Positions 15,706 to 56,456 are shown, numbered from the stretch's first letter. The stretch is 64,000 nucleotides of DNA from Bacteroidota bacterium (GCA_947477885.1 CANJUD010000001.1:108632-172631); one strand, 5' to 3'. Notes: generated by a model from the letters alone, not told the origin. A program made the numbers and translations.

Positions 15706-15797
15706 CAGTAGTTAGTGGTCAGTAACCAGTAATCAGTGCCATACGGCAGCAAACTAATTACTGACCACTGACTACTGTTTACTGACCACTGACTACT
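15706..15797. repeat. 7-mer inverted-repeat element H1 (CAGTNNN family)
   Basis: cagtagt tagtggt cagtaac cagtaat cagt ... actaatt actgacc actgact actgttt actgacc actgact act. Confidence 0.88.
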
Positions 15798-15803
15798 AAA
15801 AAA

Positions 15804-16829
15804 ATGAATCGTACTATAATAATCCTACTCCTATTTATCGCATTGCTTTGTGTAGCCTTTTGGGGCAATAAACAAGGCTGGTTTTTCAGTAAAACTGTTT
15901 TAAAAGATTTTGCGATTACCGACACTTCTGGTATCAATAAAATATATTTGGTGGAGAAGAATGGCAAAGATATTTTACTAGAGAATATTAATGGAACATG
16001 GATGGTAAATAAAACATATGAGGCATATAGTACCTACCTAAACCAGATGTTTGAAACTTTGCAAAAATTACAAGTTAAAACACCCATTCCACAAAGTCAA
16101 ATGCAAAGTGTGATTAAACTAATAGCTTCATTGCATACCAAAGTAGAAGTATACAAAAACAACCAAATATTTAAAACCTATTATATAAGTCACAGTAACG
16201 CACAACATAATGGATCTTATATGCTTTTAGACGGTTCTTCCGAACCATTTATATGCGAAGTGCCGGGCTTTGATGGCATGCCCAATATGCATTTTCCTAC
16301 AGATTTGAATAAGTGGCGTAGTAAAGTAATATTCAAAATTAAATCTGAAAATATACAATCTGTTAAACTCGAATTCCCTGATAATATGTCAGAATCATAC
16401 CAGGTGAATTATGATAATTCATCGTATATATTAACACCAGCAGCAACTACAAAAATTGATACAGGTTTTATATATTATATTAAAGGATTCTTTAATGGCA
16501 AAAAAGGTGAAGGAGTTTCAGCAGAAGCATATGGGACTGAAACAACTAAGGAAAATGAGGATTCTATATATCATTCCACACCCATGGTGATATTGACAGT
16601 AAAACAGAAGGGAAATAAAATTGATGTACTGAAAATTCATGCCAAGCATTTGAGCGAACGCACCAAAGCACAATTTGACCCGACAAATATGAAAGCAGCC
16701 AAGTATGATACTGACCGTTATTATGCATTTAAAAATGGCGATAAAGAAGTTATCATGCTGCAGGATTTTGTATTTGGAAATTTGCTGCGTAGAAAAAGTC
16801 AGTTGGCAGCTCCTTTAAATGCACAATAA
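15804..16829 (+). CDS. DUF4340-like protein associated with gldAFG
   Basis: N-terminal TM, FAITDTSGINKI, PFICEVPGFDG, DLNKWRSKVIF; typical position after gldG. Confidence 0.65.
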   Translation: MNRTIIILLLFIALLCVAFWGNKQGWFFSKTVLKDFAITDTSGINKIYLVEKNGKDILLENINGTWMVNKTYEAYSTYLNQMFETLQKLQVKTPIPQSQMQSVIKLIASLHTKVEVYKNNQIFKTYYISHSNAQHNGSYMLLDGSSEPFICEVPGFDGMPNMHFPTDLNKWRSKVIFKIKSENIQSVKLEFPDNMSESYQVNYDNSSYILTPAATTKIDTGFIYYIKGFFNGKKGEGVSAEAYGTETTKENEDSIYHSTPMVILTVKQKGNKIDVLKIHAKHLSERTKAQFDPTNMKAAKYDTDRYYAFKNGDKEVIMLQDFVFGNLLRRKSQLAAPLNAQ

Positions 16830-17755
16830 TGAAAATCCTGATTATCGAAAAAATGCACCTATGCTTGCAGGAAGGCTTGCTAGCACAGGGTTTTGAGGTT
16901 GATTATAAACCCGATATTTCCAGAGAAACTATTATAGAAACGCTACATCAATATAATGGTATTGTTGTTCGGTCAAAAACACATATTGATGCAGATTTAT
17001 TAAAACAGGGCACCCAATTAAAATTTATTGCTAGGGCTGGTGCAGGCATGGATAATGTGGATGAGGTATATGCACAACAGCATGATATTAAATGTATACA
17101 TGCGGGTGGTGCCAATGCCAATGCCGTGGGTGAGCATGCTACAGGAATGTTGTTGAGCTTATTGCATAAAATAAATTTTGGAGATGCTCAATTACGTAAA
17201 TATATATTTGACCGAAACGCAAACCAAGGTTTCGAATTACAAAATACAACTATTGGTATTATAGGTTATGGATATACTGGTAGTGCCTTTGCAAGAAAGC
17301 TCGCTGGCTTTGGGGTAAATGTGTTGGCTTATGATAAATATATTTCAATTACTAAAAATAATTATATAAAAGGATCTAGCCTGGAAACAATATTTGAACA
17401 AGCGGATATAATTTCTTTTCATGTGCCGCTTAATGAAGAAACTAAACATTATGCAAACAATGATTTTATCAATTCGTTTAAAAAAAATATTATATTAATG
17501 AATTTGAGCAGGGGTCCGGTGTTGGATACTGCTGCATTAGTTGAGAATTTGAAATCAGGAAAAATAATGGGTTGCTGCCTCGATGTGTTCCAAAACGAAA
17601 AATTAGCAACATTAAGCGAAAGCGAAAAGCTTGCATTTGATTATCTTATCACGCATCCCAATAGCGTCCTTACACCCCATGTAGCCGGATGGAGTAGCGA
17701 AAGTTACGAAGGCATTTCAAAACTATTGTTGCAAAAAATTGTGTCTATGAAGTGA
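16829..17755 (+). CDS. D-isomer-specific 2-hydroxyacid dehydrogenase (phosphoglycerate dehydrogenase-like)
   Basis: ARAGAGMDNVD, IGIIGYGYTG, SFHVPL, NLSRG, LDVFQNE, LTPHVAG. Confidence 0.88.
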   Translation: MKILIIEKMHLCLQEGLLAQGFEVDYKPDISRETIIETLHQYNGIVVRSKTHIDADLLKQGTQLKFIARAGAGMDNVDEVYAQQHDIKCIHAGGANANAVGEHATGMLLSLLHKINFGDAQLRKYIFDRNANQGFELQNTTIGIIGYGYTGSAFARKLAGFGVNVLAYDKYISITKNNYIKGSSLETIFEQADIISFHVPLNEETKHYANNDFINSFKKNIILMNLSRGPVLDTAALVENLKSGKIMGCCLDVFQNEKLATLSESEKLAFDYLITHPNSVLTPHVAGWSSESYEGISKLLLQKIVSMK

Positions 17756-17851
17756 TTTTTAATCACTTGACTATTTGAATAATTAAGTTTTTTTTGACAA
17801 AACTTCGTGGTAATTTGCAACCAAATTCTAGATTCTGAAATCTTGTAAGTA

Positions 17852-20122
17852 ATGAGAAAAATTAATTTATATATCTTCTGCATGCTTTTATTGGGCAATG
17901 CAGCGGCACAAAAACTTGGAACTTGGAAAGCCCATATGCCTTTCAGCCATATAAACAGTCTTGCCGAAGGGAATGATGAGGTATGGGCAGCTACCAACAG
18001 TGGGTTGTTCATGTTCGATTATACTTATAATTCAGTTCGTACTTTTACCACTGTAGAAGGATTAGGAGAAACCGAAGCCACCTTGCTCAGATACAATGAA
18101 GCACAAAAACTATTTATGGTAGTTTATGCCAATACCAATATTGATATAATAGAAAACGAAAATGTATCGCATTACCCAGATATTTTGAAAACTCCTATCA
18201 TTGGTAAAAAGCAAATCAACCATATTTATTACTATAAAAACTTTGCTTACCTATCTTGTAGCTTTGGTATTATACGTTTCGATTTGGATAAACGCGAAAT
18301 TTCAGAATCATATCAAAATGTGGGAGTGGGTGGCAGTTCGGTTGAGATAAATTCTCTCACCATCAGTGGCGATTCCATATATGCTGCAACTCCGGCTGGT
18401 ATTATTGCGGCTTCTATATTATCGCCCAATTTGGCCGATTATCACCAATGGAAATATATATATCAAGGTAGTGGTTGTTCGCAAATTATTACCCACGAAA
18501 ATCAAATTATTTTTGGCGTCGACACTGCTCTCCTAATATATAATAATGGTACCCTTATTCCATACTATTATATTGGCAAACATTTAATTACTACTATGGA
18601 AAGTAATCATGGAAACTTGATCGTAAATAAAGGTGACAGTATTATCTTGTTGAAAAATGGCAACTTAGTGAGTATTTATAGAGATGTGGTAAAAAACCAT
18701 GTAATACAAATTAAAAATGGCGATATATATATTGCCGATAATTCATATGGTTTAATCATACACCATCCCAATGTTGCAAGCGCAGATTTTATTGCCCCTA
18801 ACGGCCCCGTCAGCAAAAATTTAACAGATATGTGTTTTGATGGAACAGACCTCTGGACAGCTACTACAGGCCCGAACCAAATATTTTCTCCACTGTATGG
18901 CAACGATCGTTTTTCGCATTATGATGGTGAAAGATGGAACAACTTTACACAATCCCATCCTGTAATCGATAATATGCGTGACTTTTATAAAATAGCCGTG
19001 AACCCTTTCAATAAAAAAGTATATGTTGGTTCATTCGGCTATGGAATGATTGAATTGGTGAACAATAAATTTTCACAAGCGTTTATTCCAGGACTTAATG
19101 GTTGCAAATTAGATAGTTTAAAACTGGGCAGCTATTCTATTTTCCAAATAAGCGGACTTACTTTCGACGACAAAGGGAACCTCTGGATTTCAAACCCTGG
19201 GGCGAAAGATGTGATTGTAAAAATGGATACCAACTACAAATGGGAATCCTATAATTTGGGTTCGCTATCTGGTATTTCTGATGTGTTTGTTGATATAGTG
19301 TTGGATGACCTGGGGCAAAAATGGTTGGTAGCACCACGCGGAAAAGGTATTTTGGTTTTTGATGAAGGAAACAACAATTTTAATACTGGCCCGCCGCGTT
19401 CCAAATTGTTGGGAACCGATGTGGGCAGCGGCCTGTTGCCCGATATGGAAGTATCGCAAGTTGCCAAAGATAAAGATGGAAATATGTGGGTAGCAACCAA
19501 AAAAGGGCTGGTAGTTTTTTATTCACCGAGTAATATCTTTATGCCAAAAACAAATTTCGATGCACAAAGAATTGTAATTACTGTTAATGGTAAACCACAA
19601 TGGCTTTTTGGCGAAGATGTAATAAACTGTGTTGCCGTAGATCCTGCAAACCGCAAGTGGGTAGGCACTCGCAATGGAGCATATTTGATTAGTGCCGACG
19701 GACAGAAAATATTGAAAAACTATACAAAAGACAATAGCCCGCTTATATCAAATTTTGTATCACGAATTGGTGTAAACCCCACAACCGGCGAAGTATTTTT
19801 TGCTACCGATAAAGGAATGGTATCAGTAAAGGGCGATGCTGCAAAAGGAAATGACAACTATGATAGCTTAGTAGTGTTCCCCAACCCTGTAAATTCTAAT
19901 CATGGTATGGTAACCATCAAAGGACTCATCGATAATTCAAATATTAAAATAACCGATGCTGCCGGAAATATTGTGAATGAAATACAATCTAATGGGGGTA
20001 TAGCAACATGGGATATTAAGAATTTTAAAGGTGAGCGCGTTCATACGGGTGTATATCTTATTTTCTCAAACACTGCCGACGCTCTAGACCACAAGGTAGC
20101 TAAAGTACTCGTGTTTCATTAA
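17852..20122 (+). CDS. porZ: PorZ-like T9SS component (beta-propellers plus C-terminal T9SS domain)
   Basis: Signal peptide, WKAHMPF, APNGP, VDPANRKWVGT, NSPLISN, GEVFFATDKG, VFPNPV...IKITDAAG...GVYLIF. Confidence 0.78.
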   Translation: MRKINLYIFCMLLLGNAAAQKLGTWKAHMPFSHINSLAEGNDEVWAATNSGLFMFDYTYNSVRTFTTVEGLGETEATLLRYNEAQKLFMVVYANTNIDIIENENVSHYPDILKTPIIGKKQINHIYYYKNFAYLSCSFGIIRFDLDKREISESYQNVGVGGSSVEINSLTISGDSIYAATPAGIIAASILSPNLADYHQWKYIYQGSGCSQIITHENQIIFGVDTALLIYNNGTLIPYYYIGKHLITTMESNHGNLIVNKGDSIILLKNGNLVSIYRDVVKNHVIQIKNGDIYIADNSYGLIIHHPNVASADFIAPNGPVSKNLTDMCFDGTDLWTATTGPNQIFSPLYGNDRFSHYDGERWNNFTQSHPVIDNMRDFYKIAVNPFNKKVYVGSFGYGMIELVNNKFSQAFIPGLNGCKLDSLKLGSYSIFQISGLTFDDKGNLWISNPGAKDVIVKMDTNYKWESYNLGSLSGISDVFVDIVLDDLGQKWLVAPRGKGILVFDEGNNNFNTGPPRSKLLGTDVGSGLLPDMEVSQVAKDKDGNMWVATKKGLVVFYSPSNIFMPKTNFDAQRIVITVNGKPQWLFGEDVINCVAVDPANRKWVGTRNGAYLISADGQKILKNYTKDNSPLISNFVSRIGVNPTTGEVFFATDKGMVSVKGDAAKGNDNYDSLVVFPNPVNSNHGMVTIKGLIDNSNIKITDAAGNIVNEIQSNGGIATWDIKNFKGERVHTGVYLIFSNTADALDHKVAKVLVFH

Positions 20123-20135
20123 TATATAATCTTTT

Positions 20136-20220
20136 GTAGGCAGTTGGCAATCGCTACGCTTTAGTGCTTCAGTTGGTAACCCGCAGGGTACTGCCAACTG
20201 CATCCCGCCAACTGCCAACC
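20136..20220. repeat. 7-mer inverted-repeat element H2 (CAGTTGG family), degenerate
   Basis: gtagg cagttgg caat...cagttgg taac versus actgcc aactgc...cc aactgcc aacc. Confidence 0.65.
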
Positions 20221-20323
20221 ATTATATGTTTATGTCCTTCCTTTATTTGGTTGATACTTTGTTTACACAAATTTAACATATATCAAGCACTTTTGCAGTT
20301 CATATACGCATTATATATATAAT

Positions 20324-21211
20324 TTGAAACTAGCAGGGATAGATATTGGCTCAAATGCCGTGAGGCTCATCATTAATCGGGTAATGCAAAATGGTGGTAC
20401 GCAATTAAAACGTGCCGAGTTTATCCGTGTACCGCTCCGTTTGGGTGACGATGCATTCAGTCAGAAATATATTGGAGAAGCCAAGGAAGAGCAGTTGCTC
20501 AAAACCATACAATCATTTGCCTTATTAATGGAAGTGCATCATGTATCGCATTACCGAGCATGTGCCACATCGGCCATGCGTGATGCTGCCAATGGCCGTG
20601 AAGTCGCTCAGCGTATTGAAAGTGAAACAGGTATACATATAGAAATTATTGATGGATATTTAGAATCGAAATTAATATTAGAATCTGTGATGGATTTTTT
20701 TTCTAAGGAAGGCGATTTTTTAAATATAGATGTGGGTGGTGGAAGTACCGAGATAACTGTAATCCACGACCGCCAAGCAGTATATTCTCAATCGTTCAAT
20801 ATTGGAACGGTGCGTTTATTATATGGAAATGTGAGTGATGAAGAGTGGGACAAAATGCATAGCTGGGTAGTATCCAATTCTAAAAATTTGAAATCGCTAA
20901 TGGCGGTGGGCACAGGAGGCAATATCAATAAATCTTTACGCATGCTTGGTATGGGTGATCGTGATTCAGCCAGTTTTGAAAAATTGAAGTCTTTAAGCAA
21001 TTTGATTAAAGACACTACTATGAAGGAACGTATATATAAATTAAAGCTTAACCCCGACCGTGCCGATGTGATAGAACCAGCATTAAAAATATATCTTTCT
21101 ATTATGAAATGGGCCAGCATCAAAAAAATATATGCCCCCAACGTTGGGCTCAAAGACGGCATCATCAAAGAGTTGGTTGATGAGTTTGTGACAGATAAAG
21201 CGGTTTTATAA
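20324..21211 (+). CDS. ppx: Ppx/GppA family exopolyphosphatase (short form)
   Basis: IDIGSNAVRL, ATSAMRDA, DVGGGSTE, GTGGNI, RADVI, GLKDG. Confidence 0.9.
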   Translation: MKLAGIDIGSNAVRLIINRVMQNGGTQLKRAEFIRVPLRLGDDAFSQKYIGEAKEEQLLKTIQSFALLMEVHHVSHYRACATSAMRDAANGREVAQRIESETGIHIEIIDGYLESKLILESVMDFFSKEGDFLNIDVGGGSTEITVIHDRQAVYSQSFNIGTVRLLYGNVSDEEWDKMHSWVVSNSKNLKSLMAVGTGGNINKSLRMLGMGDRDSASFEKLKSLSNLIKDTTMKERIYKLKLNPDRADVIEPALKIYLSIMKWASIKKIYAPNVGLKDGIIKELVDEFVTDKAVL

Positions 21212-21292
21212 GCTACTATTTTCTTATTAGGTTTTCCAGCTGCGATTCGTAGCCGCTAGTTTGGCTATCTGTGATCAAGCTATAAATAATCT

Positions 21293-21320
21293 ATCTGTGC
21301 AAATCTGTGTTATCTGTGAG
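21293..21320. repeat. ATCTGTG-periodic short repeat arm
   Basis: atctgtg at 21293, 21303 and 21312. Confidence 0.5.
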
Positions 21321-21366
21321 CAACTTATATAGCAGATAACTGGTAAAATTCCCCGAATTTCGCAGC

Positions 21367-22272
21367 TTGGTTTTAAAAAGCACTTCTTTCAAAGTCCATA
21401 TTGCATTATTTGTAGTTGCACTCATCTATGCAGTTACATTTATTATAGCACGCAAAGTGATGAATGTATATATTCATCCTTTTGGATTTATTTTGATGCG
21501 TGTTTCCATATCAGCACTATTATATCTTTTAATTCACAGTTTATTTGTAAAAGAAAAAATTATAGACAAAAAAGACCATGTCAAATTTATTATATGCAGT
21601 GTGTTTGGTGTTGGTGCAAATATGCTATTGTTTTTCAAAGGTCTTGCAAACACAGTCCCTATCAATGGTGCAGTACTTATGACTTGCACACCCATCTTTG
21701 TAGTAATAGTAGCTGCAATATATGGAACAGAAAAACTAAGTTGGAGCAAATTTGTAGGTGTATTAATTGCTACAACTGGAGCAACACTTTTAATAGCAGG
21801 ACCTGATTTAAAATTCAGTAGCGAAACAGCAGTGGGCGATATTATGGTAACGATAAATGCTATTATATATTCTTTCTATTTGGTTTACTCGCGGCCATTA
21901 ATGTCCAAATATAATCCCATCACAGTTTCTAAATGGACATTTTTATATGGAAGTTTATTTGTCCTTCCTTTCGGATTTATGGAAATTTCAGAAGTGAAAT
22001 GGGGTGAAATCCCAGATCTAATTTGGTTTTATATCGCATTTATTATAATAGCTTCTTCCTTTGTCACGTATCTGCTAAATGCTTGGTCATTACGGCACGG
22101 AAGTTCCAGTTTGGTGGGAAGTTATATATATTTGCAACCCGTTTTAACTACTTTATTGGCAGAAATGGCTGGAGAAGATAAAATGACTTTAGAAAAAGCA
22201 GGCTATACATTACTTATTTTTGCAGGTGTGTTTTTGGTAAACTATAAACTATATAAAAAAACGACAGTATGA
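21367..22272 (+). CDS. DMT/EamA family transporter
   Basis: About ten TM helices in two EamA repeats; YIYLQPV motif. Confidence 0.9.
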   Translation: MVLKSTSFKVHIALFVVALIYAVTFIIARKVMNVYIHPFGFILMRVSISALLYLLIHSLFVKEKIIDKKDHVKFIICSVFGVGANMLLFFKGLANTVPINGAVLMTCTPIFVVIVAAIYGTEKLSWSKFVGVLIATTGATLLIAGPDLKFSSETAVGDIMVTINAIIYSFYLVYSRPLMSKYNPITVSKWTFLYGSLFVLPFGFMEISEVKWGEIPDLIWFYIAFIIIASSFVTYLLNAWSLRHGSSSLVGSYIYLQPVLTTLLAEMAGEDKMTLEKAGYTLLIFAGVFLVNYKLYKKTTV

Positions 22273-23141
22273 TAAAATCCATGACCGGATACGGTCTTGC
22301 CCGATTAGAAAATGATAAACTGCACGCCAAGGTAGAAATTAAAACCCTCAATGGCAAGTTTGCAGATTTCAATCTCCGAATTCCCCGTTTGCTTTCTTCC
22401 AAAGAATTGCAAATACGAAATATGCTGAACCAGCATATTGTAAGAGGAACAATACAATGTAATATCACTTGGCAATATAAAGCAGAAGCATCTGTGGCTA
22501 ATTCTATTAATGGTTCTGTATTGGCAAATTATATAAAAGAAATAAGAGAGGCTACAAAGAATATGAATTTTGAAGCCAAAGGTATATATAATCAAGTCCT
22601 TACATTGCCCGAAGTCCTCGTTCCCAATGACCGCGAACTTGCAGAAGCCGATTGGACACTCACAGAGAAATTGATTATGGAAGCTTGTGAAAGTTTAAAT
22701 ATATTTAGAACCGATGAAGGCAAAACTATTGAAACACATTTGATAGCATGTATCAATAATTTGCAACAAAACCTAGATAAAGTTGCTACTTATGAACCAG
22801 CAAGATTAGCAGCAGTTAGAGAAAAAATACAAACCTCGCTTAACAAATATATACTACCTGAAAATATAGACAACAATAGACTAGAACAGGAAATTATATA
22901 TTATATAGAAAAACTGGATATTGCTGAAGAAAAAACAAGATTACAACAGCATTTAACTTATTTTCTGCAAAATCTCAATGATGCAGAATCAGGCAAGAAG
23001 CTTGGTTTTATTGCACAGGAGATGCTCCGCGAAATAAATACCATGGGCAGCAAAGCCAATCATTTCGAAATACAACAACTGGTTGTGGGAATGAAAGATG
23101 AGTTGGAAAAAGTGAAGGAACAGATATTGAATGTATTATAA
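22269..23141 (+). CDS. yicC: YicC/YloC family endoribonuclease
   Basis: MIKSMTGYG, EIKTLNGK, KLDIAEEKTRL, GKKLGFIAQEMLREINTMGSKAN, EQILNVL. Confidence 0.93.
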   Translation: MIKSMTGYGLARLENDKLHAKVEIKTLNGKFADFNLRIPRLLSSKELQIRNMLNQHIVRGTIQCNITWQYKAEASVANSINGSVLANYIKEIREATKNMNFEAKGIYNQVLTLPEVLVPNDRELAEADWTLTEKLIMEACESLNIFRTDEGKTIETHLIACINNLQQNLDKVATYEPARLAAVREKIQTSLNKYILPENIDNNRLEQEIIYYIEKLDIAEEKTRLQQHLTYFLQNLNDAESGKKLGFIAQEMLREINTMGSKANHFEIQQLVVGMKDELEKVKEQILNVL

Positions 23142-23146
23142 TACTT

Positions 23147-23221
23147 TGTCACCCTGAGTTTATCGAAGGGCGACATGGAAGAGCACTATTTTTGCCTGTC
23201 TTCGATAAGACTCAGACTGAA
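23147..23221. repeat. TGTCA...TGA(CA) palindromic element T1
   Basis: tgtcaccctgagtttatcgaagggcgaca ... tgtcttcgataagactcagactga; near-identical arms at 58387-58492. Confidence 0.85.
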
Positions 23222-23227
23222 AAAAAA

Positions 23228-25405
23228 TTACTCCAAATTCAATTCTACCGCCCCATTCCTACAATCCGTAAAATTACTTTTATATACCAAGGCTTCCTTT
23301 TTCCATTGCTCAATATAATAGTTTGAGTTGCTCAAATCTGCTATATAATGTCGTGCCTTTACCTTGCCTGCCAAGTCTTCCCAGTGTTTCATAGGTTTGT
23401 GGCTGATGATGGCATAATCCACGGAATCTGGAAATTCATTGGTGGGCATTTGGTTGATGAGCAATATCTTTTTACCATTGAACATATATAGATTCTTATA
23501 ATTTTGCAATTGCCCATTCATATGATTTGTTGTATCATATAAACTATATATATTCTTCTCTTTTGTACCCATATCAATCCAATGTTTTTGAAATTTGAAT
23601 TTGAGCGTAGAAGTATTATATAATATAGTTGTATCACCCACTGAGGTTAATTTATCTGAATCGAAGAAACCCAATACAGTTTTGCCCTGTATGGCATATA
23701 CAAATACTTTTTTCTGCTTTTCCCAATGATAATTTTCTGTCATTTTTGAAGCAAGAAAAATTAAAACAAACAATGAGGCAGCATAAAAATTATAGCTATT
23801 TTTATGAGTGAGAAATTGCGTGATGAAAAAGAAAATAGTTAATAATAAAATCGTTTGCCAAAAACCAATACTTAATCCCTCAAAAGTTGAATATGGAATC
23901 TGTCCTATAAATTTAACGGTATCGTCTGTCCATTTTATTAAATAGTCCAAAGCCAAACCCATGGCCGCTGCAAGTGCAGGAACGAAAGAAAATGAAACCA
24001 ACAAAAGTCCGATATAAGTTATAATAGTGGATAGTGGAATGATGAGTAAATTCGATATCAAAAAATAATTGGGGAACTGCCCAAAATAATAGAAGCCCAG
24101 GGGCGACGTGGCCAATTGTGCCGCAATTGAAACCGCTGTTATATTCCACACTTGACTCATAACCCACGAATTAAAACTAAACCAACTATGTATGCGCGGT
24201 TGCATAAAAACAATCCCTAAAACTGCCAAATACGAAAGCTGAAAACCAACGTCGTATATGGAGTATGGATTAATCAACAATAATATAAAAGCGGATGCAG
24301 CAATAGAATTATATATATTCGTATTGCGATGAAAAGTCTCGGCTATTATTATAATAGTAAACATCAAAGCGGCTCTGTTTACTGAAGGCGATAAACCTGT
24401 AATGAGAGCATAAAACCAAAGCGTCGCTATTATAATACAAAACCTCAAAATTCGAAGAGATTTTTTGCGTGTTAAAAAGCCTAATAAAGCTTTTAGTACA
24501 AAGTATAATATTCCCACATGCAAGCCCGAAACTGCTAGCACATGCAATGTTCCCGTATCTGCATAAGCCTCCACCAAGTCCTGCGATAAATCTTCTCGGT
24601 ATCCAAATATCAATGCAGCAGCCACACCTTTTTGTTCATCACCAGGTATATATTTTTTGTACACCCCAACTATATAGCTTTTAATATAATAAAATATATT
24701 GTCAAGCACATGTGAAGAATCTTTTCCTACTTCAGCCCATTCCCCATCTCGTGCAAAAACCTGATAGCTGTAGCCATTAACTCGCATATATCGATTATAG
24801 TCAAACTCGCCCGGGTTTATTGGTTTGGGAATTTCTATTGGTTTGCTTTTTATCAATAATATGGTTCCATGTTCCAATTGCATGGCATCGCTATCTTTGG
24901 GTAAGTATAATAATATATTACCACTTGCATTTATATAATTACTATCTTGTATAATACTTAAAACCTTTGCTCTTGCCCGAACCGATTTTTCACGCGGAAT
25001 TGCATTTTCTGTTAGTTCAACTTTAATAAGCTGTTCTTCTTTTTGTAGTTTGGTAAAATGGTTGGTTTTATAATTATCAGCTTGGGTAATGGGCAGTAAC
25101 AACCCCAATACTATAAATGCTGAATTTACACAAATTGTATATAATACTTTAAGTTTTCTGGTATATTTATTTTGAAAGAAAGCTAATATAGATAATATAC
25201 AAACCAGTGATACAAATACCCATTGTAAAACGTTGAAAGTATCAGTGAAATAAGATGATAGAGCAATTCCCAATATCAAAGGCAGCACCATCCGCACAAA
25301 AGGAACTTGATGCCAAGGGTTCACATGTTGCGTTTGTATAATATGTTCTTTATTATACTGGCGTACCCTGAAAAATTCTTGTATAAAGTTTATAAGCCAC
25401 TTCAT
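23228..25405 (-). CDS. comEC: ComEC/Rec2 family competence protein
   Basis: PGEFDY, GTLHVLAVSGLHVG, SVNRAALM, GFQLSYLA, QLATSPL; TACTTTTG promoter at 25414-25421. Confidence 0.9.
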   Translation of the reverse strand: MKWLINFIQEFFRVRQYNKEHIIQTQHVNPWHQVPFVRMVLPLILGIALSSYFTDTFNVLQWVFVSLVCILSILAFFQNKYTRKLKVLYTICVNSAFIVLGLLLPITQADNYKTNHFTKLQKEEQLIKVELTENAIPREKSVRARAKVLSIIQDSNYINASGNILLYLPKDSDAMQLEHGTILLIKSKPIEIPKPINPGEFDYNRYMRVNGYSYQVFARDGEWAEVGKDSSHVLDNIFYYIKSYIVGVYKKYIPGDEQKGVAAALIFGYREDLSQDLVEAYADTGTLHVLAVSGLHVGILYFVLKALLGFLTRKKSLRILRFCIIIATLWFYALITGLSPSVNRAALMFTIIIIAETFHRNTNIYNSIAASAFILLLINPYSIYDVGFQLSYLAVLGIVFMQPRIHSWFSFNSWVMSQVWNITAVSIAAQLATSPLGFYYFGQFPNYFLISNLLIIPLSTIITYIGLLLVSFSFVPALAAAMGLALDYLIKWTDDTVKFIGQIPYSTFEGLSIGFWQTILLLTIFFFITQFLTHKNSYNFYAASLFVLIFLASKMTENYHWEKQKKVFVYAIQGKTVLGFFDSDKLTSVGDTTILYNTSTLKFKFQKHWIDMGTKEKNIYSLYDTTNHMNGQLQNYKNLYMFNGKKILLINQMPTNEFPDSVDYAIISHKPMKHWEDLAGKVKARHYIADLSNSNYYIEQWKKEALVYKSNFTDCRNGAVELNLE

Positions 25406-25447
25406 TTAGAGGCCAAAAGTAAATCAGAAAAATGAAAAACTATAATC

Positions 25448-26836
25448 TTACAAATGTATACATTCACCATAAGCATCGGCTGTAGCTTCCATAATGGCTT
25501 CGCTCATGGTGGGATGGGGATGTATTGATTTCAAAATTTCATGGCCCGTGGTCTCTAAACGGCGAGCAACTACAGCTTCAGCTATCATTTCTGTTACGTT
25601 TGCTCCTACCATGTGGCAGCCTAACCACTCACCATATTTTGCATCAAATATCACTTTTACCATGCCGTCTTTAGCTCCCGATGCACTTGCTTTTCCGCTT
25701 GCACTAAAGGGGAAACGACCTACTTTAATATCATAACCCAATTCGCGGGCTTTCTTTTCAGTGAGACCAACACTGGCAACCTCGGGCCAGCAATAGGTGC
25801 AACCAGGAATATTATCATAGTTGAGAGGTTCTGGATGATGCCCTGCAATTTTTTCTACACATATAATACCTTCTGCACTTGCTACGTGGGCAAGGGCAGG
25901 GCCTTTTACGATATCGCCAATAGCATAGATTCCGTCCACATTGGTTTTATAAAAATCATCCACAACTACTTTTCCTTTGTCAGTAACAATTTTTAATTCT
26001 TCAATTCCTAAATTTTCTAGGTTAGTTTGGATTCCAACAGCAGAAAGGACAATATCGCAATCAATAATTTCTTCGCCGGTTTTCGTTTTTATTTTTACTT
26101 TGCAACCTTCACCGCTGGTATCCACTGATAGCACCTCCGCATCGGTCATAATGCTAATTCCTGATTTTTTATAGGTACGTGCCAAGGCTTTCGAAATTTC
26201 TTCATCTTCCAAGGGAAGTATTTGAGGTAAATACTCTACAATTGTTACCTTGGTTCCTATGCTATTATAAAAATAAGCAAACTCGGCTCCGATAGCACCT
26301 GATCCAACTACCACCATACTTTTTGGCTGGGTAGGTAATACCATGGCATCCATATAACCCACTATTTTTTTGCCATCCATTTTTATATTCGGCAATTCAC
26401 GACTGCGAGCACCGGTAGCGAGTATAATACTCTTAGCTTCATGCGTGGTTTTTTTACCATCGGCTGCTGTCACTTCCAGTTTGCCTTTGCCAACTAGTTT
26501 CCCAAAACCTACAATTACTTCTATCTTATTTTTCTTCATCAAAAACGAAATGCCTTTGCTCATTCCGTTTGCCACATCTCTGCTGCGTTTTACAATACTC
26601 GCAAATTCGGGTTTCGATTCACCTACCGTGATGCCATAATCAGCGGCATGTTTTATATACTCAAATACTTGAGCCGATTTTAGTAATGCTTTTGTGGGAA
26701 TACAACCCCAATTGAGGCAAACACCGCCCAATTCAGATTTTTCGACAATGGCTACTTTCAATCCTAATTGACTTGCCCTGATTGCAGCTACATAACCACC
26801 TGGTCCACTGCCTAATACTATTAAATCAAAACTCAT
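25448..26836 (-). CDS. lpdA: Dihydrolipoyl dehydrogenase (E3)
   Basis: GSGPGGYVAA, GGVCLNWGCIPTK, GSGAIGAEF, YAIGD, HPHPTMSE. Confidence 0.97.
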   Translation of the reverse strand: MSFDLIVLGSGPGGYVAAIRASQLGLKVAIVEKSELGGVCLNWGCIPTKALLKSAQVFEYIKHAADYGITVGESKPEFASIVKRSRDVANGMSKGISFLMKKNKIEVIVGFGKLVGKGKLEVTAADGKKTTHEAKSIILATGARSRELPNIKMDGKKIVGYMDAMVLPTQPKSMVVVGSGAIGAEFAYFYNSIGTKVTIVEYLPQILPLEDEEISKALARTYKKSGISIMTDAEVLSVDTSGEGCKVKIKTKTGEEIIDCDIVLSAVGIQTNLENLGIEELKIVTDKGKVVVDDFYKTNVDGIYAIGDIVKGPALAHVASAEGIICVEKIAGHHPEPLNYDNIPGCTYCWPEVASVGLTEKKARELGYDIKVGRFPFSASGKASASGAKDGMVKVIFDAKYGEWLGCHMVGANVTEMIAEAVVARRLETTGHEILKSIHPHPTMSEAIMEATADAYGECIHL

Positions 26837-26982
26837 ATGTTGTTGTATTTTTAATTATTTCGCACTGCAAATTAAACTTAAATTATGCAGAAGAAAATAA
26901 AATACCTCTCGACTTTAAAAAAAAATTCTGATGCGTAGCGCTGCGCATCTCGATGGAAGTGCGTTTACTTTGATAATAAGGC

Positions 26983-27060
26983 CGTCATGCTGTCCCGACC
27001 TATCGGGATGTTTCAGCATCTAAAAACCTTTAAAGATGCTGAGACAAATGCAGCATCGCG
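26983..27060. repeat. CGTCATGCTG-type palindromic element with nested mini-hairpin
   Basis: cgtcatgctg[tcccgacctatcggga]tgtttcagcatct ... agatgctgagacaaatgcagcatcgcg; separate hairpin gatgcgtagcgctgcgcatc at 26930-26949. Confidence 0.7.
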
Positions 27061-27070
27061 TGATAAAAAA

Positions 27071-27942: not shown

Positions 27943-27956
27943 AAAAAATCGTGTTT

Positions 27957-47666: not shown

Positions 47667-48431
47667 ATGAGAACTAAAATAGTAGCAGGAAACTGGAAAA
47701 TGAACAAAAATTTCCACGAAGGATTGGAACTCACTAGCGAGATTACCGGAATGGTGAACGATGAAATTAATGGCAATGTAGAAGTGGTTTTAATTCCTAC
47801 TTATATACATTTGAATGCGATAAGCCAACTTACCCAAGGTAGCAACAAAATCAGTACTGGAGCACAGAACTGTCATATAGAAAATTCGGGTGCTTATACT
47901 GGAGAAATTTCTGCTGCGATGGTTGCCGCCGCTGGTTGCAAATATTGTTTGGCGGGCCATAGTGAGCGTCGTTTATTTAATAATGAAACCAATTCCGTAC
48001 TTGCTAAAAAAGTGGATGCTATTTTAGCGAATAATTTATCACCTATATATTGCTGCGGTGAAACATTGGAAGAACGCAATGCAGAAAAACATTTTGATAT
48101 TATAGGTTCGCAAGTGAAAGAAGGATTATTTCATTTGAACAATGAGCAAATATTAAAATGTGTAATCGCCTACGAGCCCGTGTGGGCCATAGGTACAGGC
48201 GTTACTGCAAGCACCGCACAAGCACAAGAAGTGCATGCATATATAAGAACTTCACTGACAGAAAAATATGGCATTGATATCGCCTCGCAAATTAGAATAC
48301 TATATGGCGGCAGTGTAAAACCCGATAATGCAAAAGAACTTTTTTCACAAGCAGATATTGATGGCGGATTGGTTGGCGGAGCAGCACTCCAATCTCGTAG
48401 TTTTGTTGATATTGTGAAAGGAGCCGTATAG
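47667..48431 (+). CDS. tpiA: Triosephosphate isomerase
   Basis: AGNWKMN, GHSERR, AYEPVWAIGTG, LYGGSV, LVGGA. Confidence 0.98.
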   Translation: MRTKIVAGNWKMNKNFHEGLELTSEITGMVNDEINGNVEVVLIPTYIHLNAISQLTQGSNKISTGAQNCHIENSGAYTGEISAAMVAAAGCKYCLAGHSERRLFNNETNSVLAKKVDAILANNLSPIYCCGETLEERNAEKHFDIIGSQVKEGLFHLNNEQILKCVIAYEPVWAIGTGVTASTAQAQEVHAYIRTSLTEKYGIDIASQIRILYGGSVKPDNAKELFSQADIDGGLVGGAALQSRSFVDIVKGAV

Positions 48432-48508
48432 TAAACAGTAGTCAGTAACCATTAATCAGTGGCTGACGCCAAATGATACTGACCACTGAACACTGGTTAC
48501 TAACTACT
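48430..48508. repeat. 7-mer inverted-repeat element H5 (CAGTNNN family), overlapping the tpiA stop
   Basis: agtaaa cagtagt cagtaac cattaat cagtggc ... actgacc actgaac actggtt actaact act. Confidence 0.85.
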
Positions 48509-48522: not shown

Positions 48523-49812
48523 ATGAAATACCCAGCATTACCCCAAGAATTCTATATAGAAAACCGCAAAAAGTTTTGTGCAAAAATGTTACCCGGCTCT
48601 ATAGCCATATTCACTAGCAATGATGAAATGCCACGCAATGCAGATGCAACGCACAACTGGAAACAGAACAGTGATTTGCTTTGGCTCACGGGTATCGATC
48701 AGGAAGAGAGCATGCTCATATTGTTTCCCGATTGTCCAAATCCAGATTTTAGGGAAGTATTATATCTGCGTGAAACTAATGAAACAATAGAAACTTGGGA
48801 GGGACATAAATATACCAAAAAAGAAGCCCACGAGACTTCTGGAATAAATATTATACATTGGAATCATGTTTTCAAACAGCAATTGCACCCAGCCATTGTA
48901 TTGGCTGAAAATGTATATATGAACTTGAACGAACATGACCGTGCATCGCTGCGTGTAGCCGACCAGCAACAACGTTTGGCAAAAGATATTATGACACAAT
49001 ATCCTTTGCATAATTACCATCGTTCTGCTCCTATTATGCATCGTTTGCGTGCTGTAAAATCAAGTATAGAAGTGGAGCAACTGAAGCAAGCAATAGAAAT
49101 TGCAAACAAAGGTTTCCGCAGGCTGCTCAACTTTGTAAAACCAGGTGTGATGGAGTATGAAGTGGAGGCAGAACTTATTCATGAATATATAAGAAATGCT
49201 GGAACAGGTCATGCATTCCACCCTATTATAGCATCGGGCAGCAGTGCTTGTGTGCTTCATTATATTGAAAATAATAGGAAGTGTAAAGATGGTGATTTGT
49301 TATTGGTGGATACAGGCTGTGAATACGCAAACTATAATAGCGATCTTACACGTTGCATTCCCGTAAATGGAAAATTTAGCAAACGCCAAAAAGAAGTGTA
49401 TGAAGCAGTTTTACGTTTGCAGGAAACAGCCATGAGAATGTATTTAAAACCGGGCAACGTTTTACAACAGTATCATATAGAGTTTGGCAGGCATATATCT
49501 GAAGAATGTATAAAACTTGGGCTATTGAAAAATGAAGAAGTGGTTCGCAATCCCTTGGCATATAAGAAGTATTGTGTACATGGTATTTCACATCATTTGG
49601 GTTTGGATGTGCATGATTCAGGACTGCGTTGGGAGAAAATGGAAGTGGGGAATGTGTTCACCGTAGAGCCCGGAATTTATATAGCCGAAGAAGGAATCGG
49701 TGTGCGTATTGAAAACAATGTTTTGATAACTGAAACAGGATGTGTAGATTTGATGCCTCAAATACCCAAACAGGTAGAAGAAATAGAGCAATTAATGGCC
49801 AACAGGAAATAA
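48523..49812 (+). CDS. pepP: Xaa-Pro aminopeptidase
   Basis: LHY, LVDTGCE, SDLTR, HGISHHLGLDVHD, TVEPG, RIEN. Confidence 0.93.
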   Translation: MKYPALPQEFYIENRKKFCAKMLPGSIAIFTSNDEMPRNADATHNWKQNSDLLWLTGIDQEESMLILFPDCPNPDFREVLYLRETNETIETWEGHKYTKKEAHETSGINIIHWNHVFKQQLHPAIVLAENVYMNLNEHDRASLRVADQQQRLAKDIMTQYPLHNYHRSAPIMHRLRAVKSSIEVEQLKQAIEIANKGFRRLLNFVKPGVMEYEVEAELIHEYIRNAGTGHAFHPIIASGSSACVLHYIENNRKCKDGDLLLVDTGCEYANYNSDLTRCIPVNGKFSKRQKEVYEAVLRLQETAMRMYLKPGNVLQQYHIEFGRHISEECIKLGLLKNEEVVRNPLAYKKYCVHGISHHLGLDVHDSGLRWEKMEVGNVFTVEPGIYIAEEGIGVRIENNVLITETGCVDLMPQIPKQVEEIEQLMANRK

Positions 49813-50634: not shown

Positions 50635-51564
50635 ATGAAATCAATATCGGTTGTAATTCCTTCTTATAATGAACAAGACAATGTAGTACTATTGGCCACA
50701 AAAGTGTTGGAGCAGTTGGAAGGAAAATATGACTATGAATTAATTTTTGTAGATGATGGTAGCAGTGATGCTACCTTGGAGAATTTAAAAAAGCTCAATC
50801 AGCAAAACAACAGAATACATTACCTCAGTTTTTCACGAAATTTTGGTCACCAAAAAGCATTACGTTGCGGTTTGGCCTATGCAAAGGGCGATGCGGTAAT
50901 ATCAATGGATGCCGATATGCAACACCCTCCGTATATGATTCCAGAACTTATAGAAAAATGGGAAGAAGGATATGATATAGTTTATACCCAACGACTCGAC
51001 ACAAAAGAAGTAGGAATATTCAAACGCACTACTTCTTCATTTTTTTATAAGCTCACTAGCCGCTTGGCTGATATAGAAATGGAAGAAGGCACCGCCGATT
51101 TTAGATTGCTTGATAGAAAAGTTGCCAATATCATAAACCGAACGGGAGAGAGTAATTTATTTATTCGTGGGTTTATTGTTTGGATGGGTTTCAAAAAATA
51201 TAAAATACCATATAAGCCAGAAGAACGTCATTCTGGCGTTACCAAGTATACTTTTAGAAAAATGTTTTTGTTTGCTTTGAATGGAATCACTTCTTTCAGC
51301 GTAAAACCATTATATATATCTATTGTGTTGGGTTTAATAATTTCATTGTGTAGTTTTATATATGCATTGTACGCCATCTATAATTATTTTTTCAAAAGCG
51401 GTGTTGTTGATGGGTGGACTTCATTGTTGGTAAGCGTTCTATTTATTGGCGGTCTGCAACTTATTATATTGGGAATTATCGGAGAGTATCTAGGCAAACT
51501 ATTTATGCAAACCAAAAACAGGCCTGATTATATAGTGAGTGAGAGTAGCTTGAAAGAGGTATAA
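50635..51564 (+). CDS. GT2 polyprenol-phosphate glycosyltransferase (GtrB/YkoT-like)
   Basis: FVDDGSSD, SRNFGHQ, MDADMQHPP, DFRLLDR, two C-terminal TM helices, GEYLGK. Confidence 0.9.
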   Translation: MKSISVVIPSYNEQDNVVLLATKVLEQLEGKYDYELIFVDDGSSDATLENLKKLNQQNNRIHYLSFSRNFGHQKALRCGLAYAKGDAVISMDADMQHPPYMIPELIEKWEEGYDIVYTQRLDTKEVGIFKRTTSSFFYKLTSRLADIEMEEGTADFRLLDRKVANIINRTGESNLFIRGFIVWMGFKKYKIPYKPEERHSGVTKYTFRKMFLFALNGITSFSVKPLYISIVLGLIISLCSFIYALYAIYNYFFKSGVVDGWTSLLVSVLFIGGLQLIILGIIGEYLGKLFMQTKNRPDYIVSESSLKEV

Positions 51565-51700
51565 GGTATATAGTATAATGTATAAAGATGGGATTGTGTT
51601 TTTTCATTTGAATATATTTTATAGAAGCAGAATACTTTTCTCATCCAAGCAAAGGAGTAGAATCTCCTCTCCGTCTTTTGTCTTTATACTATATACTATA
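51559..51700. repeat. 7-mer inverted-repeat element H6 (GTATANN family), overlapping the GT2 stop
   Basis: gtataag gtatata gtataat gtataaa ga ... tc tttatac tatatac tata. Confidence 0.65.
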
Positions 51701-51701: not shown

Positions 51702-52430
51702 ATGGCTAGCGAAAAATCTAGAGGTGTTATAATAAACCACGTTAATTACAGCGAGACAAGTGTAGTGTGCAATATATTTACGAGAGAACATGGGTTGCTT
51801 GGATTTATGATGAAAGGATTGCGACGCGGCAAAGGAGCTATAAAAAGCAGTCATATTATGCCGCTTAATTTGGTAGATATTATATTCGACAATAAACCCA
51901 ATCAACAATTACTTATATTGAAGGAATTGCACTGTAATCCATTGCTGATGGGACTTCACGGTGAAATGCATAAGAATGCCTTGTCCATATTTATGAGTGA
52001 AGTATTACAAAAAACACTATATAAAGAACATGTTGATCAAAGTTTGTTTGACCATTTGGAAAGCACAATTATATATATAAATAGAGTACAAAATATTGCC
52101 AATATTCCTTGTTATTTTTTGTTAAAATTAGCTTTGTTCATGGGGTTCAAACCGAAGGGAGGATGGCAGCCCGAAGAGCAATTGATGTTGGATGTTTTTG
52201 ATGGAATTTTTACCAATATTGTAAAGAAAGAACATTTGCAATTATCGGTTGATGCCAGCAGGTATATATATAATTTGCTGAACAGCAGAATAGAAGAACA
52301 AGAAGTATTAAGCCAATTATACCAAACCCGCATTGAAGCATTGGACGGGATGGTTGATTACTTCCAATTTCATATTTTGAACCAGAAAAAAATTATTTCT
52401 CACCAAATTTTACATGATATTTTAAAATGA
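51702..52430 (+). CDS. recO: DNA repair protein RecO
   Basis: YSETSVVCNIFTREHG, FMSEVL, LFMGFKP, DYFQFH. Confidence 0.88.
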   Translation: MASEKSRGVIINHVNYSETSVVCNIFTREHGLLGFMMKGLRRGKGAIKSSHIMPLNLVDIIFDNKPNQQLLILKELHCNPLLMGLHGEMHKNALSIFMSEVLQKTLYKEHVDQSLFDHLESTIIYINRVQNIANIPCYFLLKLALFMGFKPKGGWQPEEQLMLDVFDGIFTNIVKKEHLQLSVDASRYIYNLLNSRIEEQEVLSQLYQTRIEALDGMVDYFQFHILNQKKIISHQILHDILK

Positions 52431-55291: not shown

Positions 55292-55317
55292 CACGAATTA
55301 CACGAATAATTGCGAAT
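55292..55317. repeat. CACGAAT 9-mer repeat arm
   Basis: cacgaatta cacgaataa ttgcgaat. Confidence 0.45.
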
Positions 55318-55352
55318 GTTATTGTCTTAAATTTGCAGAAAATATTTTATCC

Positions 55353-56318
55353 GTGGAATCTCTCATAAAATTGCTGAACCAAGGCATCAAAGATTATAAT
55401 ATCGCAACGAAGGGTTACCAAACTGCTGAGCAGCAAAAGTACTTGATGAACTTAGGTGGCAAACGTGTACGTCCTTTGCTCGCCTTGATGTCGTGCGAGA
55501 TGTTTGGCAAAGACCCAGCTGCTGCATTGCCTGCCGCTTTGGCGGTAGAGGTATTTCATAATTTCAGTTTGGTGCATGATGATATTATGGACCAAGCACC
55601 CATGCGCAGAGGTAAAGAAACGGTGCATCAAAAATGGAACTCGGCAACTGCAATACTAACAGGCGATGTAATGCTGGTGAATGCATACCAACTATTACAA
55701 CAACTAGATAGTGATGTTTGTAAATCTGCAATGGAATTATTCAGCACCGCAGCAGTACAAGTGTGCGATGGGCAAATGCTGGACATGGGTTTTGAAAATA
55801 AATCGCATGTTTCCATACAAGAATATCTGGATATGATAACGCTGAAGACTGCAGTTTTATTAGGCTGTTCACTTAAACTTGGAGCAATAGTAGCACAAGC
55901 GCCTCCTACCTTTGCCAATCACTTATATCATTTCGGTGTGAAGCTTGGTATCTCATTCCAGTTGCAGGATGATATACTGGATGTATATGCAAAAGGAGAT
56001 GCATTTGGGAAGCAAATTGGCGGTGATATCTTATCCAACAAAAAAACTTTTTTGCTTATTTCTGCATTAGAAAATGCAACAGGAGAAGAGAAAAAATTAT
56101 TAGATTTTTGGTTACGCCATCCCAATCCAGACCCAGCAGAAAAAGTGGAAATCATCACTTCATTATATAATAAACTGGGCATACACCAACAAGCCAAAAC
56201 GATGATGGAAAACTATTATACTGATGCGATGGATCTATTGGCAGCCGTAGAAGTTAGTACTGATGCGAAAAAACCATTATATAGTTTGGCGGGGAAGCTT
56301 TTGCATAGGGAAAATTGA
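55353..56318 (+). CDS. Polyprenyl diphosphate synthase (IspA/CrtE-like)
   Basis: GGKRVRP, HDDIMD (FARM), RRG, KTA, FQLQDD (SARM), GGD...KKT. Confidence 0.93.
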   Translation: MESLIKLLNQGIKDYNIATKGYQTAEQQKYLMNLGGKRVRPLLALMSCEMFGKDPAAALPAALAVEVFHNFSLVHDDIMDQAPMRRGKETVHQKWNSATAILTGDVMLVNAYQLLQQLDSDVCKSAMELFSTAAVQVCDGQMLDMGFENKSHVSIQEYLDMITLKTAVLLGCSLKLGAIVAQAPPTFANHLYHFGVKLGISFQLQDDILDVYAKGDAFGKQIGGDILSNKKTFLLISALENATGEEKKLLDFWLRHPNPDPAEKVEIITSLYNKLGIHQQAKTMMENYYTDAMDLLAAVEVSTDAKKPLYSLAGKLLHREN

Positions 56319-56329
56319 TTTATGGTATT

Positions 56330-56456
56330 CGATGCACGATTTGCGATTGACGAGGAGAGCTAAAAGTGGTTGGTCACAATACACAACCACAGGCAGTGCT
56401 ATAATCAGACGTCAGCAAAATCGTACATCATAAATCGCACATCGTACATCGTCAAT
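56330..56456. repeat. 7-mer inverted-repeat element H7 (CGATGTA family) between convergent genes
   Basis: cgatgca cgatttg cgattga cga ... aatcgta catcata aatcgca catcgta catcgtc aat. Confidence 0.82.

Follow-up and report, generated by a model that had tools for sequence, protein, structure and literature searches.

Hairpins with inverted heptamer arms in the gene spacers of a freshwater Bacteroidota chromosome and their likeness to PF05635 cassettes

What kind of element builds hairpins of one geometry out of several different tandem heptamers within a short stretch of a chromosome? The question is raised by a segment of 64,000 nucleotides from an uncultured freshwater member of the Bacteroidota (GCA_947477885.1, CANJUD010000001.1:108632-172631), hereafter the window, in which seven gene spacers hold two inverted arrays of 7-nt units around a loop. 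We read these hairpins, with a probability of about 0.55, as gene-less members of a widespread intergenic foldback class that resembles the intervening sequences (IVSs) of rRNA. The best explanation of the collected data is that the full form of this architecture encloses a four-helix-bundle gene of the PF05635 family, and that the 23S rRNA IVS is a rare case that happens to sit in rRNA.

Architecture of the seven hairpins and transcription at one site

An initial annotation of the window had described the inverted period-7 architecture at seven sites, with units of the types CAGTNNN, CAGTTGG, GTATCAA, GTATANN and CGATGTA; both the architecture and the motifs were reproduced by independent programs (Table 1, where elements are identified by their first nucleotide). 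An objective detector, which demands a period-7 array and a complementary partner no more than 230 nt away, finds six elements in the window as compared to a mean of 0.01 and a maximum of 1 in 100 block shuffles, and six of the seven sites pass it. Period 7 alone is enriched, with seven strict runs as compared to 0-2 for every other period between 4 and 11. Under a less strict threshold the number of runs is 15, where shuffled sequence gives 0-5. Five of the sites rank among the eight longest pairs reported for the window by an inverted-repeat finder. All seven fold as long hairpins (-27.5 to -55 kcal/mol; z from -3.0 to -8.4 relative to dinucleotide shuffles), with arms of 24-35 nt that are 80-91% complementary and loops of 20-80 nt that contain no open reading frame (ORF). 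The site at 20136-20220 is under the detector threshold, having four CTGCCAA-type units in its 3' arm and only about two in its 5' arm; it is a real but weakly periodic hairpin and the weakest of the seven.

The three CAGT elements are related copies with the common termini AGTAGTYAGT...ACTRACTACT, all within 64 kb, and the depth of lake-metagenome contigs rises approximately 3- to 8-fold over the arms. The arrays of the window elements are rich in G on the 5' side and in C on the 3' side. For the 15707 and 36281 elements, the order of the unit variants in one arm is mirrored in the other. Separate synthesis of each arm from a 7-nt template, in the manner of telomerase, would explain the G-rich 5' polarity; it was rejected, since the mirrored order of units contradicts it.

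Intrinsic terminators and elements of the REP/BIME type are likewise hairpins of intergenic DNA, and several other inverted-repeat families occupy the same spacers of the window. In common with the REP/BIME/REPIN and Correia families, the elements described here are short palindromes of operon spacers that form mosaics with other modules and are co-transcribed with their neighbours. Those families influence the stability of mRNA or, in the case of the Correia (NEMIS) elements of Neisseria, are substrates of RNase III. However, REP families have one conserved sequence each and a RAYT transposase, whereas the arms in the window are periodic rather than one conserved palindrome, differ between copies and have no transposase seen in association with them; a Y1 transposase domain is absent from the annotated genes of the window and its relatives, and no recombinase was found with the window elements. 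Target-site duplications, a mark of Correia elements and of MITEs, do not occur in the flanks of the seven hairpins. As for terminators, the stems lead into A-runs or mixed sequence and never into a T-run, a scan of 15000-34900 placed none of its 18 terminator-like sites on a hairpin, and most elements lie within co-directional gene pairs. Explanations of either kind are already largely refuted and retain hardly any credibility.

A metatranscriptome contig runs from the 3' end of tpiA through the entire 48430 hairpin into the start of pepP, which shows co-transcription at this site. By the mechanism that we propose, the element would be transcribed within the host operon and its arms would pair into a stem of approximately 25-35 bp. 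The stem may then be cut by RNase III, which would separate the neighbouring cistrons, or it may mask the leader of the downstream gene; at three sites the distance from the 3' arm to the start codon of that gene is 1-14 nt. On this analysis the hairpins are probably RNase III substrates or translation gates.

Turnover in close relatives

Orthologous regions from seven related genomes or contigs, as well as contigs of related strains, were aligned to the window. The initial annotation had regarded invariance of orthologous spacers as the outcome that would speak against its reading; the spacers in fact turn over fast. In the gldG spacer a hairpin is present in every relative and the loop tip GTGCCATWCGGC is kept while the arms vary, from the CAGTNNN type of the window to a GAGTTGT type in L088; in L090 the 3' arm has grown to about 12 units via 21-nt duplications. 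The same loop tip recurs at different loci. The tpiA-pepP spacer has six states among the window and its close relatives. The window has the CAGT hairpin, and L324 has it with one 7-nt unit fewer; L003 has a TAGT hairpin in which changes in one arm are compensated in the other; in L326, from the genome of L088, the hairpin is of GAGTTGT type; L328 has another inverted repeat that is not periodic, and L004 no element. Upstream of recO all relatives carry a GTAT-type hairpin, and in L003 and L328 the spacer between the GT2 glycosyltransferase gene and recO holds arms near-identical to those of the 27809 element. The porZ-ppx spacer shows four unrelated states, with the 20136 element replaced by other sequence in relatives. 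Orthologous hairpins fold with z between -2.4 and -8.5, versus -0.2 for the element-free spacer of L004. The hairpin is therefore kept while the sequence of its arms changes, even through complete replacement of the unit.

A metagenome scan with the conserved loop tip AGTGCCATNCGGCARCA was unproductive: of 121 hits, no more than 7 were accompanied by a period-7 run, even a weak one, and L248 alone was a heptamer hairpin, so the remainder look like chance matches.

At the strain level (93-97% identity) the arms differ by indels of 7 and 21 nt: a 7-nt deletion at 48484, a 7-nt deletion at 36367 in X16, and a 21-nt insertion at 51673 in X10. In X10, moreover, the whole 36281 region is swapped for 98 other letters. 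We suggest that arm length would change by slipped-strand mispairing, with whole 7-nt units gained or lost, that the two arms would nevertheless remain mirror copies of each other, and that, within the time over which strains diverge, a given spacer may lose its element, have it replaced or be seeded anew. Hairpins this close to the start codons of housekeeping genes (1-14 nt), and this variable between such similar strains, are likely to contribute to differences in expression from strain to strain. Assemblies also break at them.

These observations bear on the simplest account, in which slippage-prone microsatellites chance into palindromes in permissive spacers, with neither a function nor a dedicated mechanism. 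Whole-unit indels, highly variable copy number and a relative that lacks the element (L004) are all as it predicts, and among the long simple repeats of bacterial genomes it is the heptamers that are over-represented (Mrazek 2007, cited in both PMC4679880 and PMC4692102). The statement of the initial annotation that slippage does not explain the arrays is accordingly too broad, because whole-unit slippage does explain the indels of 7, 7 and 21 nt; it stands for the inverted symmetry, for the AG core of the units and for the link to a gene family, both described below. Slippage creates no inverted partner with mirrored unit order, shuffled sequence yields 0.01 elements where six are observed, and the hairpin persists through complete unit replacement. 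Neither the AG core with its fixed polarity nor a tight cross-phylum link to one gene family would be expected. We consider a purely neutral origin very improbable.

In GCA_034439655.1 two orthologous loci have both shifted from CAGT-type to GAGTTGT-type arms; independent drift would hardly bring the same new unit family to both, and some exchange among copies may be involved.

PF05635 genes, unit grammar and competing readings

The gene-bearing form was sought with a PF05635-like consensus, which matched the structures 2GSC (E = 3e-26) and 2RLD; these three sequences made up the query alignment. With one genome searched per species, 80 PF05635 loci were obtained, in Bacillota, Acidobacteriota, Planctomycetota, Desulfobacterota, Nitrospirota, Patescibacteria, Pseudomonadota and Bacteroidota. 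At most of these loci two arrays of tandem heptamers form the best inverted repeat that spans the gene, and the unit differs from locus to locus; for instance, AGTAGCC is repeated seven times in L026, and other arms are built from TTAGTGG (L008, L027, L029), AGCCTTA (L082), GGCAGTG (L031) or CAGTAGT/CAGTTGT (L051). CAGT-type arms like those of the window surround PF05635 genes in L026, L043, L048, L051 and L066. For the highest-scoring period-7 run no more than 150 nt from the ORF, the median score is 11 on the upstream side and 10.5 on the downstream side, as compared to 3 in 400 control segments, and 75% of the loci exceed the 95th percentile of the controls on at least one side (51% on both). 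A stricter screen for complementary inverted array pairs yielded 54 pairs in the 80 loci, with a median of 386 nt between the arms, approximately the span of the gene. All 13 further PF05635 loci found on viral contigs also show inverted heptamer arms. The initial annotation had suggested a link between 7-mer arms and four-helix-bundle genes of the 23S-IVP/Avd-like type, and these 80 genomic and 13 viral loci bear it out; the link was put forward for Bacteroidota, and it extends over many phyla.

None of 40 PF05635 cassettes checked is located in rRNA, and the rRNA IVS consequently looks like the exception. Between co-directional neighbours, 43 cassettes are oriented in sense and four in antisense; the PF05635 cassette rides on host transcription. 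Several loci (L024, L038, L010, L052, L062, L068 and L081) give two or three hits with the PF05635 hidden Markov model (HMM): L024 has two full-length genes in tandem, while L010 and L068 look like one gene split into two ORFs.

The units at these loci are many, yet they are not arbitrary. When the units of 54 upstream arms are rotated to their best register, a core NNAGKNN emerges, with A in 43 and G in 52 of the 54, and an information content of 4.06 bits versus 3.49 +/- 0.12 for shuffled units. The polarity is that of the window as well: G exceeds C in the 5' arm of 46 of 52 pairs, and the 3' arm is C-rich. Among the window units, CAGTNNN, CAGTTGG, GTATCAA (AAGTATC) and GTATAnn (AGGTATA) fit this core, whereas CGATGTA fits only a minor CG class. 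A common AG core and a fixed polarity fit a shared reader or generator of the arms, as the initial annotation had proposed. Period, core and polarity are to us the most interesting part of the system. The possibility that the 7-mers serve as suppliers of stop codons in three frames was tried and rejected (similar stop densities of 0.082 per nt in 5' arms and 0.055 in 3' arms; arms with stops in all frames, 23 and 17).

One candidate for the shared reader is a single-strand-binding protein with a footprint of about 7 nt, such as a cold-shock-domain protein, S1 or another global regulator. The arms would then be arrays of binding sites, open when bound and folded into the hairpin when free, and would in this way adjust how the neighbouring gene is translated or how stable its product RNA is. 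The binding site of a cold-shock domain is 6-7 nt long, with a reported optimum of GTCTTTG/T, and GTCTTTT GTCTTTA occurs in the 3' arm of the 51557-51700 element. The idea agrees with the common core, with 3' arms that stop 1-14 nt before start codons, and with a lone, non-inverted AATTACG-type array at 2264 before an osmC-like gene. Such an array is also found just upstream of an osmC-like gene in L328 (L328:18188-18205), at a different chromosomal place, so that it seems to travel with the gene. Similar roles have been proposed for related repeats: S1, Csp and CsrA as candidate binders of the TAACTGA repeats that precede start codons in Beggiatoaceae, Cyanobacteria and five Bacteroidetes (MacGregor 2015, PMC4679880), paired hepta- and octanucleotide sites annotated as regulator sites in the Geobacter genome paper (PMC2700814), and a heptamer deletion in Nostoc that alters recO and recF reporter output (10.1101/2022.06.06.494920). 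On the other hand, the units vary widely between loci of one genome, and a binding-site switch accounts for neither the association with PF05635 nor the fast replacement of elements. We regard it as quite unlikely to be the main explanation.

The link to PF05635 raises instead the prospect of cassette mobility, which the initial annotation favoured. The hairpins would be empty, non-autonomous sites or copies, and a PF05635 protein, supplied in trans by a filled copy at another place in the genome, would recognise the arms and move or copy the element. Consistent with this, PF05635 genes are almost always enclosed by heptamer arms, the three CAGT copies of the window share termini, the loop tip GTGCCATWCGGC is found at several loci, and the presence, absence and replacement of elements vary among close relatives. 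The concerted switch from CAGT to GAGTTGT in GCA_034439655.1 points to communication between copies. A role of the IVS ORF as a mobility factor was already proposed by Ralph and McClelland, as quoted in PMC4990558. Against it, neither tblastn nor an HMM built from 75 sequences, which as a positive control gave 88 hits in the 80 loci, detects a PF05635 gene in the window. Small ORFs in the relatives' spacers were considered as alternative cargo; the two candidates, in L088 (146 aa) and L327 (114 aa), have neither complementary flanking arms nor a Pfam match, and their arm scores are 8 and 7, where 200 shuffles of the L327 flanks reach 11. The similarity of PF05635 proteins does not track that of the flanking heptamers (rho -0.03, permutation p 0.25, over the narrow range of identities sampled). 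The family is a small helical bundle, and judging from the bAvd, 2GSC and 2RLD structures we know of no nuclease or recombinase chemistry in it. Hairpin-rich viral stretches without the gene, and the missing target-site duplications and filled copies, count against mobility likewise. Dispersed related copies, turnover and the concerted switch lend mobility some support, yet with no filled copy, junction signature, transposase or recombinase it is unproven, and we think it doubtful that the window hairpins are its empty sites.

A bolder form of the same idea would make the whole class a self-propagating cross-phylum element: a PF05635 pentamer would bind the arms, and an active process (targeted gene conversion, or copy-and-paste via a nucleic-acid intermediate) would rewrite and re-seed them, so that rRNA IVSs, cyanobacterial STRR, TAACTGA repeats, the GGGAATC pairs of Xanthomonas and the window hairpins would all belong to one undescribed mobility system. 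This is a tentative proposal that we would not expect to hold.

The reading of the hairpins as gene-less members of an IVS-like foldback class has its own difficulties. In the window and in approximately 250 kb of sequence from seven related genomes there is no filled copy and no PF05635 gene, and it is from common design alone that we infer descent from, or relation to, the gene-bearing cassettes. A scan of viral contigs for one CAGT-type arm matched at least 110 stretches, and in three contigs of about 60% GC from IMG/VR (L101, L119 and L149) a CAGTGGY...RCCACTG heptamer hairpin lies in nearly every intergenic spacer; no PF05635 gene was found in the CAGT-arm viral stretches examined (at least 110), and hairpins evidently exist independently of the gene. 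Arm mismatches show no strand-specific tolerance of G-U pairs (95 versus 106, with 200 of transversion type) and hence no sign of selection on RNA pairing. The RNA that spans tpiA and pepP is a single assembled contig that gives no RNA ends and may include DNA carry-over. The 36281 element, between divergent genes, and the 56330 element, between convergent ones, are outside co-directional gene pairs, and a role in operon processing is not obvious there. Finally, the model accounts neither for units of just 7 nt nor for their AG core, nor for the excess of G in 5' arms. All of these points weigh against our preferred explanation.

Known systems, genomic setting and other repeats

Among known elements, the 23S/16S rRNA IVSs of Leptospira and Coxiella, which are gene-less in Salmonella and others, come closest to this foldback class. 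Elements of both kinds end in inverted repeats that pair into a long stem, both exist in gene-bearing and gene-less versions, and both are sporadically distributed; the S23p/PF05635 ORF of rRNA IVSs belongs to the cargo family of the full heptamer cassette. In contrast to IVSs, which are inserted in helices of the rRNA, the window elements lie between protein genes (gldG, porZ, ppx, tpiA, pepP, recO and others) and have no ORF. The Coxiella 23S IVS has a 28-bp terminal stem with two or three GACAGAT heptamers before the S23p ORF, their number depending on the strain, and RNase III cuts at the first repeat (PMC4990558). RNase III excision is thus shown for an IVS (PMC4990558), whereas the window elements are known from sequence and one RNA contig. 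Among older ideas quoted in the same paper, IVSs were taken for relics of transposition or for mobile elements with an ORF that aids mobility (PMC4990558).

Heptamer repeats have been reported from several other lineages. Cyanobacterial STRR are intergenic heptamer repeats and, like the TAACTGA, Xanthomonas and Geobacter repeats and those of the window, consist of tandem 7-mers in spacers, often beside start codons. With TAACTGA, the CAGTNNN units have the core ACTGA/TCAGT in common and nothing more; tandem TAACTGA is absent from both strands of the window, where there are only eight single copies. Inverted pairs were also noted in Xanthomonas, with 70-75 convergent GGGAATC array pairs per genome (PMC4692102), and in Geobacter. 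Published reports describe one unit per genome and mostly direct arrays, whereas the window has several unit families and the inverted hairpin is the rule. The terms 'S23' and 'four-helix' do not occur in the Xanthomonas and Geobacter papers (PMC4692102, PMC2700814). No statement of the rule that links PF05635 genes to heptamer arms was found in the open full-text literature, although subscription journals were not covered and an earlier statement is possible.

The protein side is represented by bAvd, a pentameric, nucleic-acid-binding four-helix bundle that serves diversity-generating retroelements as an accessory protein. It has the fold and family of the full-cassette cargo and acts together with a reverse transcriptase and a template repeat, whereas stand-alone PF05635 cassettes have no reverse transcriptase nearby; in a crude test, one of the 13 viral loci had a 209-aa ORF with a YxDD motif. 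Scattered PF05635 genes are known from cas loci and, in the Candidate Phyla Radiation (Patescibacteria), from insertions in rRNA. The family has been described as Avd-like (PMC10053308).

Three puzzles are at stake: where rRNA intervening sequences come from, what the four-helix-bundle gene does, and what heptamer repeats mean. To our knowledge, PF05635 is among the commonest bacterial families with no known function outside diversity-generating retroelements, and the heptamer repeats of Cyanobacteria, Beggiatoaceae, Xanthomonas, Geobacter and Coxiella have been the subject of separate reports over 30 years with no mechanism. If one architecture (inverted AG-core arms that ride on host transcription, with or without a gene) joins them, the three become one question.

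Table 1. Positions of heptamer-armed hairpins, lone heptamer arrays and other repeats in the window (L-prefixed coordinates refer to relatives; arrays in the fifth column are those of Tandem Repeats Finder at period 7)
Feature	Position	Setting	Arms or units	Period-7 arrays	Other properties
CAGT-type hairpin	15707-15797	between gldG (13958-15703) and DUF4340 gene (15804-16829)	15707-15738/15766-15797, 32 nt, 91% complementary; 5' arm AGTAGTT AGTGGTC AGTAACC AGTAATC AGTG	15759-15797	loop tip GCCATACGGC; -45.3 kcal/mol, z -8.4; 3' arm stops 6 nt short of ATG at 15804
Weaker hairpin	20136-20220	between porZ (17852-20122) and ppx	outer stem GTAGGCAGTTGGC/GCCAACTGCCAAC and nested inner stem	20190-20219	z -4.5
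GTATCAA-type hairpin	27809-27942	between VTT-domain gene (27071-27733, -) and dtd (27957-28409, -)	27809-27843/27908-27942, 35 nt, 80% complementary	27809-27835, 27911-27942	loop 64 nt; z -5.0
CAGT-type hairpin	36281-36387	between divergent map (35461-36237, -) and rpmH	36281-36310/36358-36387, 30 nt, 87% complementary	36281-36310	structured loop 47 nt; -55 kcal/mol, z -7.7
CAGT-type hairpin	48430-48508	between tpiA (47667-48431) and pepP (48523-49812)	48437-48462/48483-48508, 26 nt, 85% complementary		z -5.8; 3' arm stops 14 nt short of ATG at 48523
GTATAnn-armed hairpin	51557-51700	between GT2 glycosyltransferase gene (50635-51564) and recO (51702-52430)	arrays 51557-51585/51673-51700; paired arms 51566-51591/51671-51696, 26 nt, 81% complementary	51557-51585, 51685-51700	loop ~80 nt; z -3.2; 5' array overlaps GT2 stop codon; 3' arm stops 1 nt short of ATG at 51702
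CGATGnn/nnCATCG hairpin	56330-56452	between convergent polyprenyl synthetase gene (55353-56318) and DUF4625 gene (56452-56976, -)	56330-56353 pairs with 56428-56451, 20/24 (own scan); 3' array 56420-56452	56420-56452	z -3.0
Lone array	10836-10864	inside waaA-like ORF 9791-11032 (-)	CATCGTA x4 (gene strand)		
Lone array	2264-2281	just 5' of osmC-like start	AATTACG type, 2.1-2.5 units		no inverted partner
Lone purine-rich array	39801-39818	directly after aminotransferase gene stop codon	GGAGTAA/GGGGTAA		spacer replaced in relatives
Separate array	27789-27805	abuts 27809 element	GAATTAC x2.4		
Inverted repeats around 132-nt segment	37488-37667	upstream of arginase-family gene 37758-38669	TAATATTTCGTACCTACGGCACTT/AAGTGCCGTAGGTACGATATATTA, 24 nt		
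Second inverted-repeat family (nested)	7182-7345, 9655-9765, 31160-31350, 34020-34150; half copy 5119-5190		GTCATTGCGAGGA ... GGCAATCCCATGGAGTGTGTGCTCG ... loop ... mirror		
Third inverted-repeat family	23147-23220, 58387-58492; L328:10766-10850, L324:2185-2290		TGTCAYCCTGAGTTTATCGAAGGGCGACA and mirror		
Short GC-rich palindromes	39860-39880, 57400-57425, 5119-5145, 26985-27005; L088 and L326 loops		CCGCCGCGGCGG type and CCCGATAGCTATCGGG type		

The window is a chromosome segment of 37% GC whose sequence is present in many lake metagenomes; for Ppx the nearest named relatives are Sphingobacteriaceae, at approximately 50% identity. Its genes are housekeeping genes, including gldG, porZ, ppx, comEC, dtd, ruvX, map, rpmH, rnpA, prfA, tpiA, pepP, recO and ispB, and no transposase, reverse transcriptase or PF05635 gene was seen among them. 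An Rfam scan of the window returned no rRNA, no other family and no match at any of the hairpins.

The lone array inside the waaA-like ORF and the 3' arm of the 56330 element are nearly identical. In the relative L092 the corresponding codon position holds ATCCCGA x4, and in L088 a longer insert with the palindrome GATTCGCCGCGGCGAAT, which indicates one permissive site that different repeats have hit again and again. Between prfA and tpiA, two relatives carry insertions that are absent from the window: a toxin-antitoxin-like pair (a 68-aa ORF and a PIN_2 protein) at L003:9314-9979, and a 70-aa ORF only at L328:9777-9989.

Other repeats share the spacers of the window. An invertible DNA switch is suggested by the segment that 24-nt inverted repeats flank, upstream of the arginase-family gene: its repeats form 'opposite strands' joints in contigs of three other lake metagenomes, and X10 and X16 align part of the segment in reverse. 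In the second inverted-repeat family, two copies contain ACGAGGA x2; this family is absent from PF05635 loci, as are the window repeat families 'GTCATTGCGAGG...' and 'CCTGAGTTTATCGAAGG'. A member of the third family fills the tpiA-pepP spacer of L328, where the window has a heptamer hairpin, and hairpin modules are in this sense interchangeable in one slot. The short GC-rich palindromes recur inside or beside other elements.

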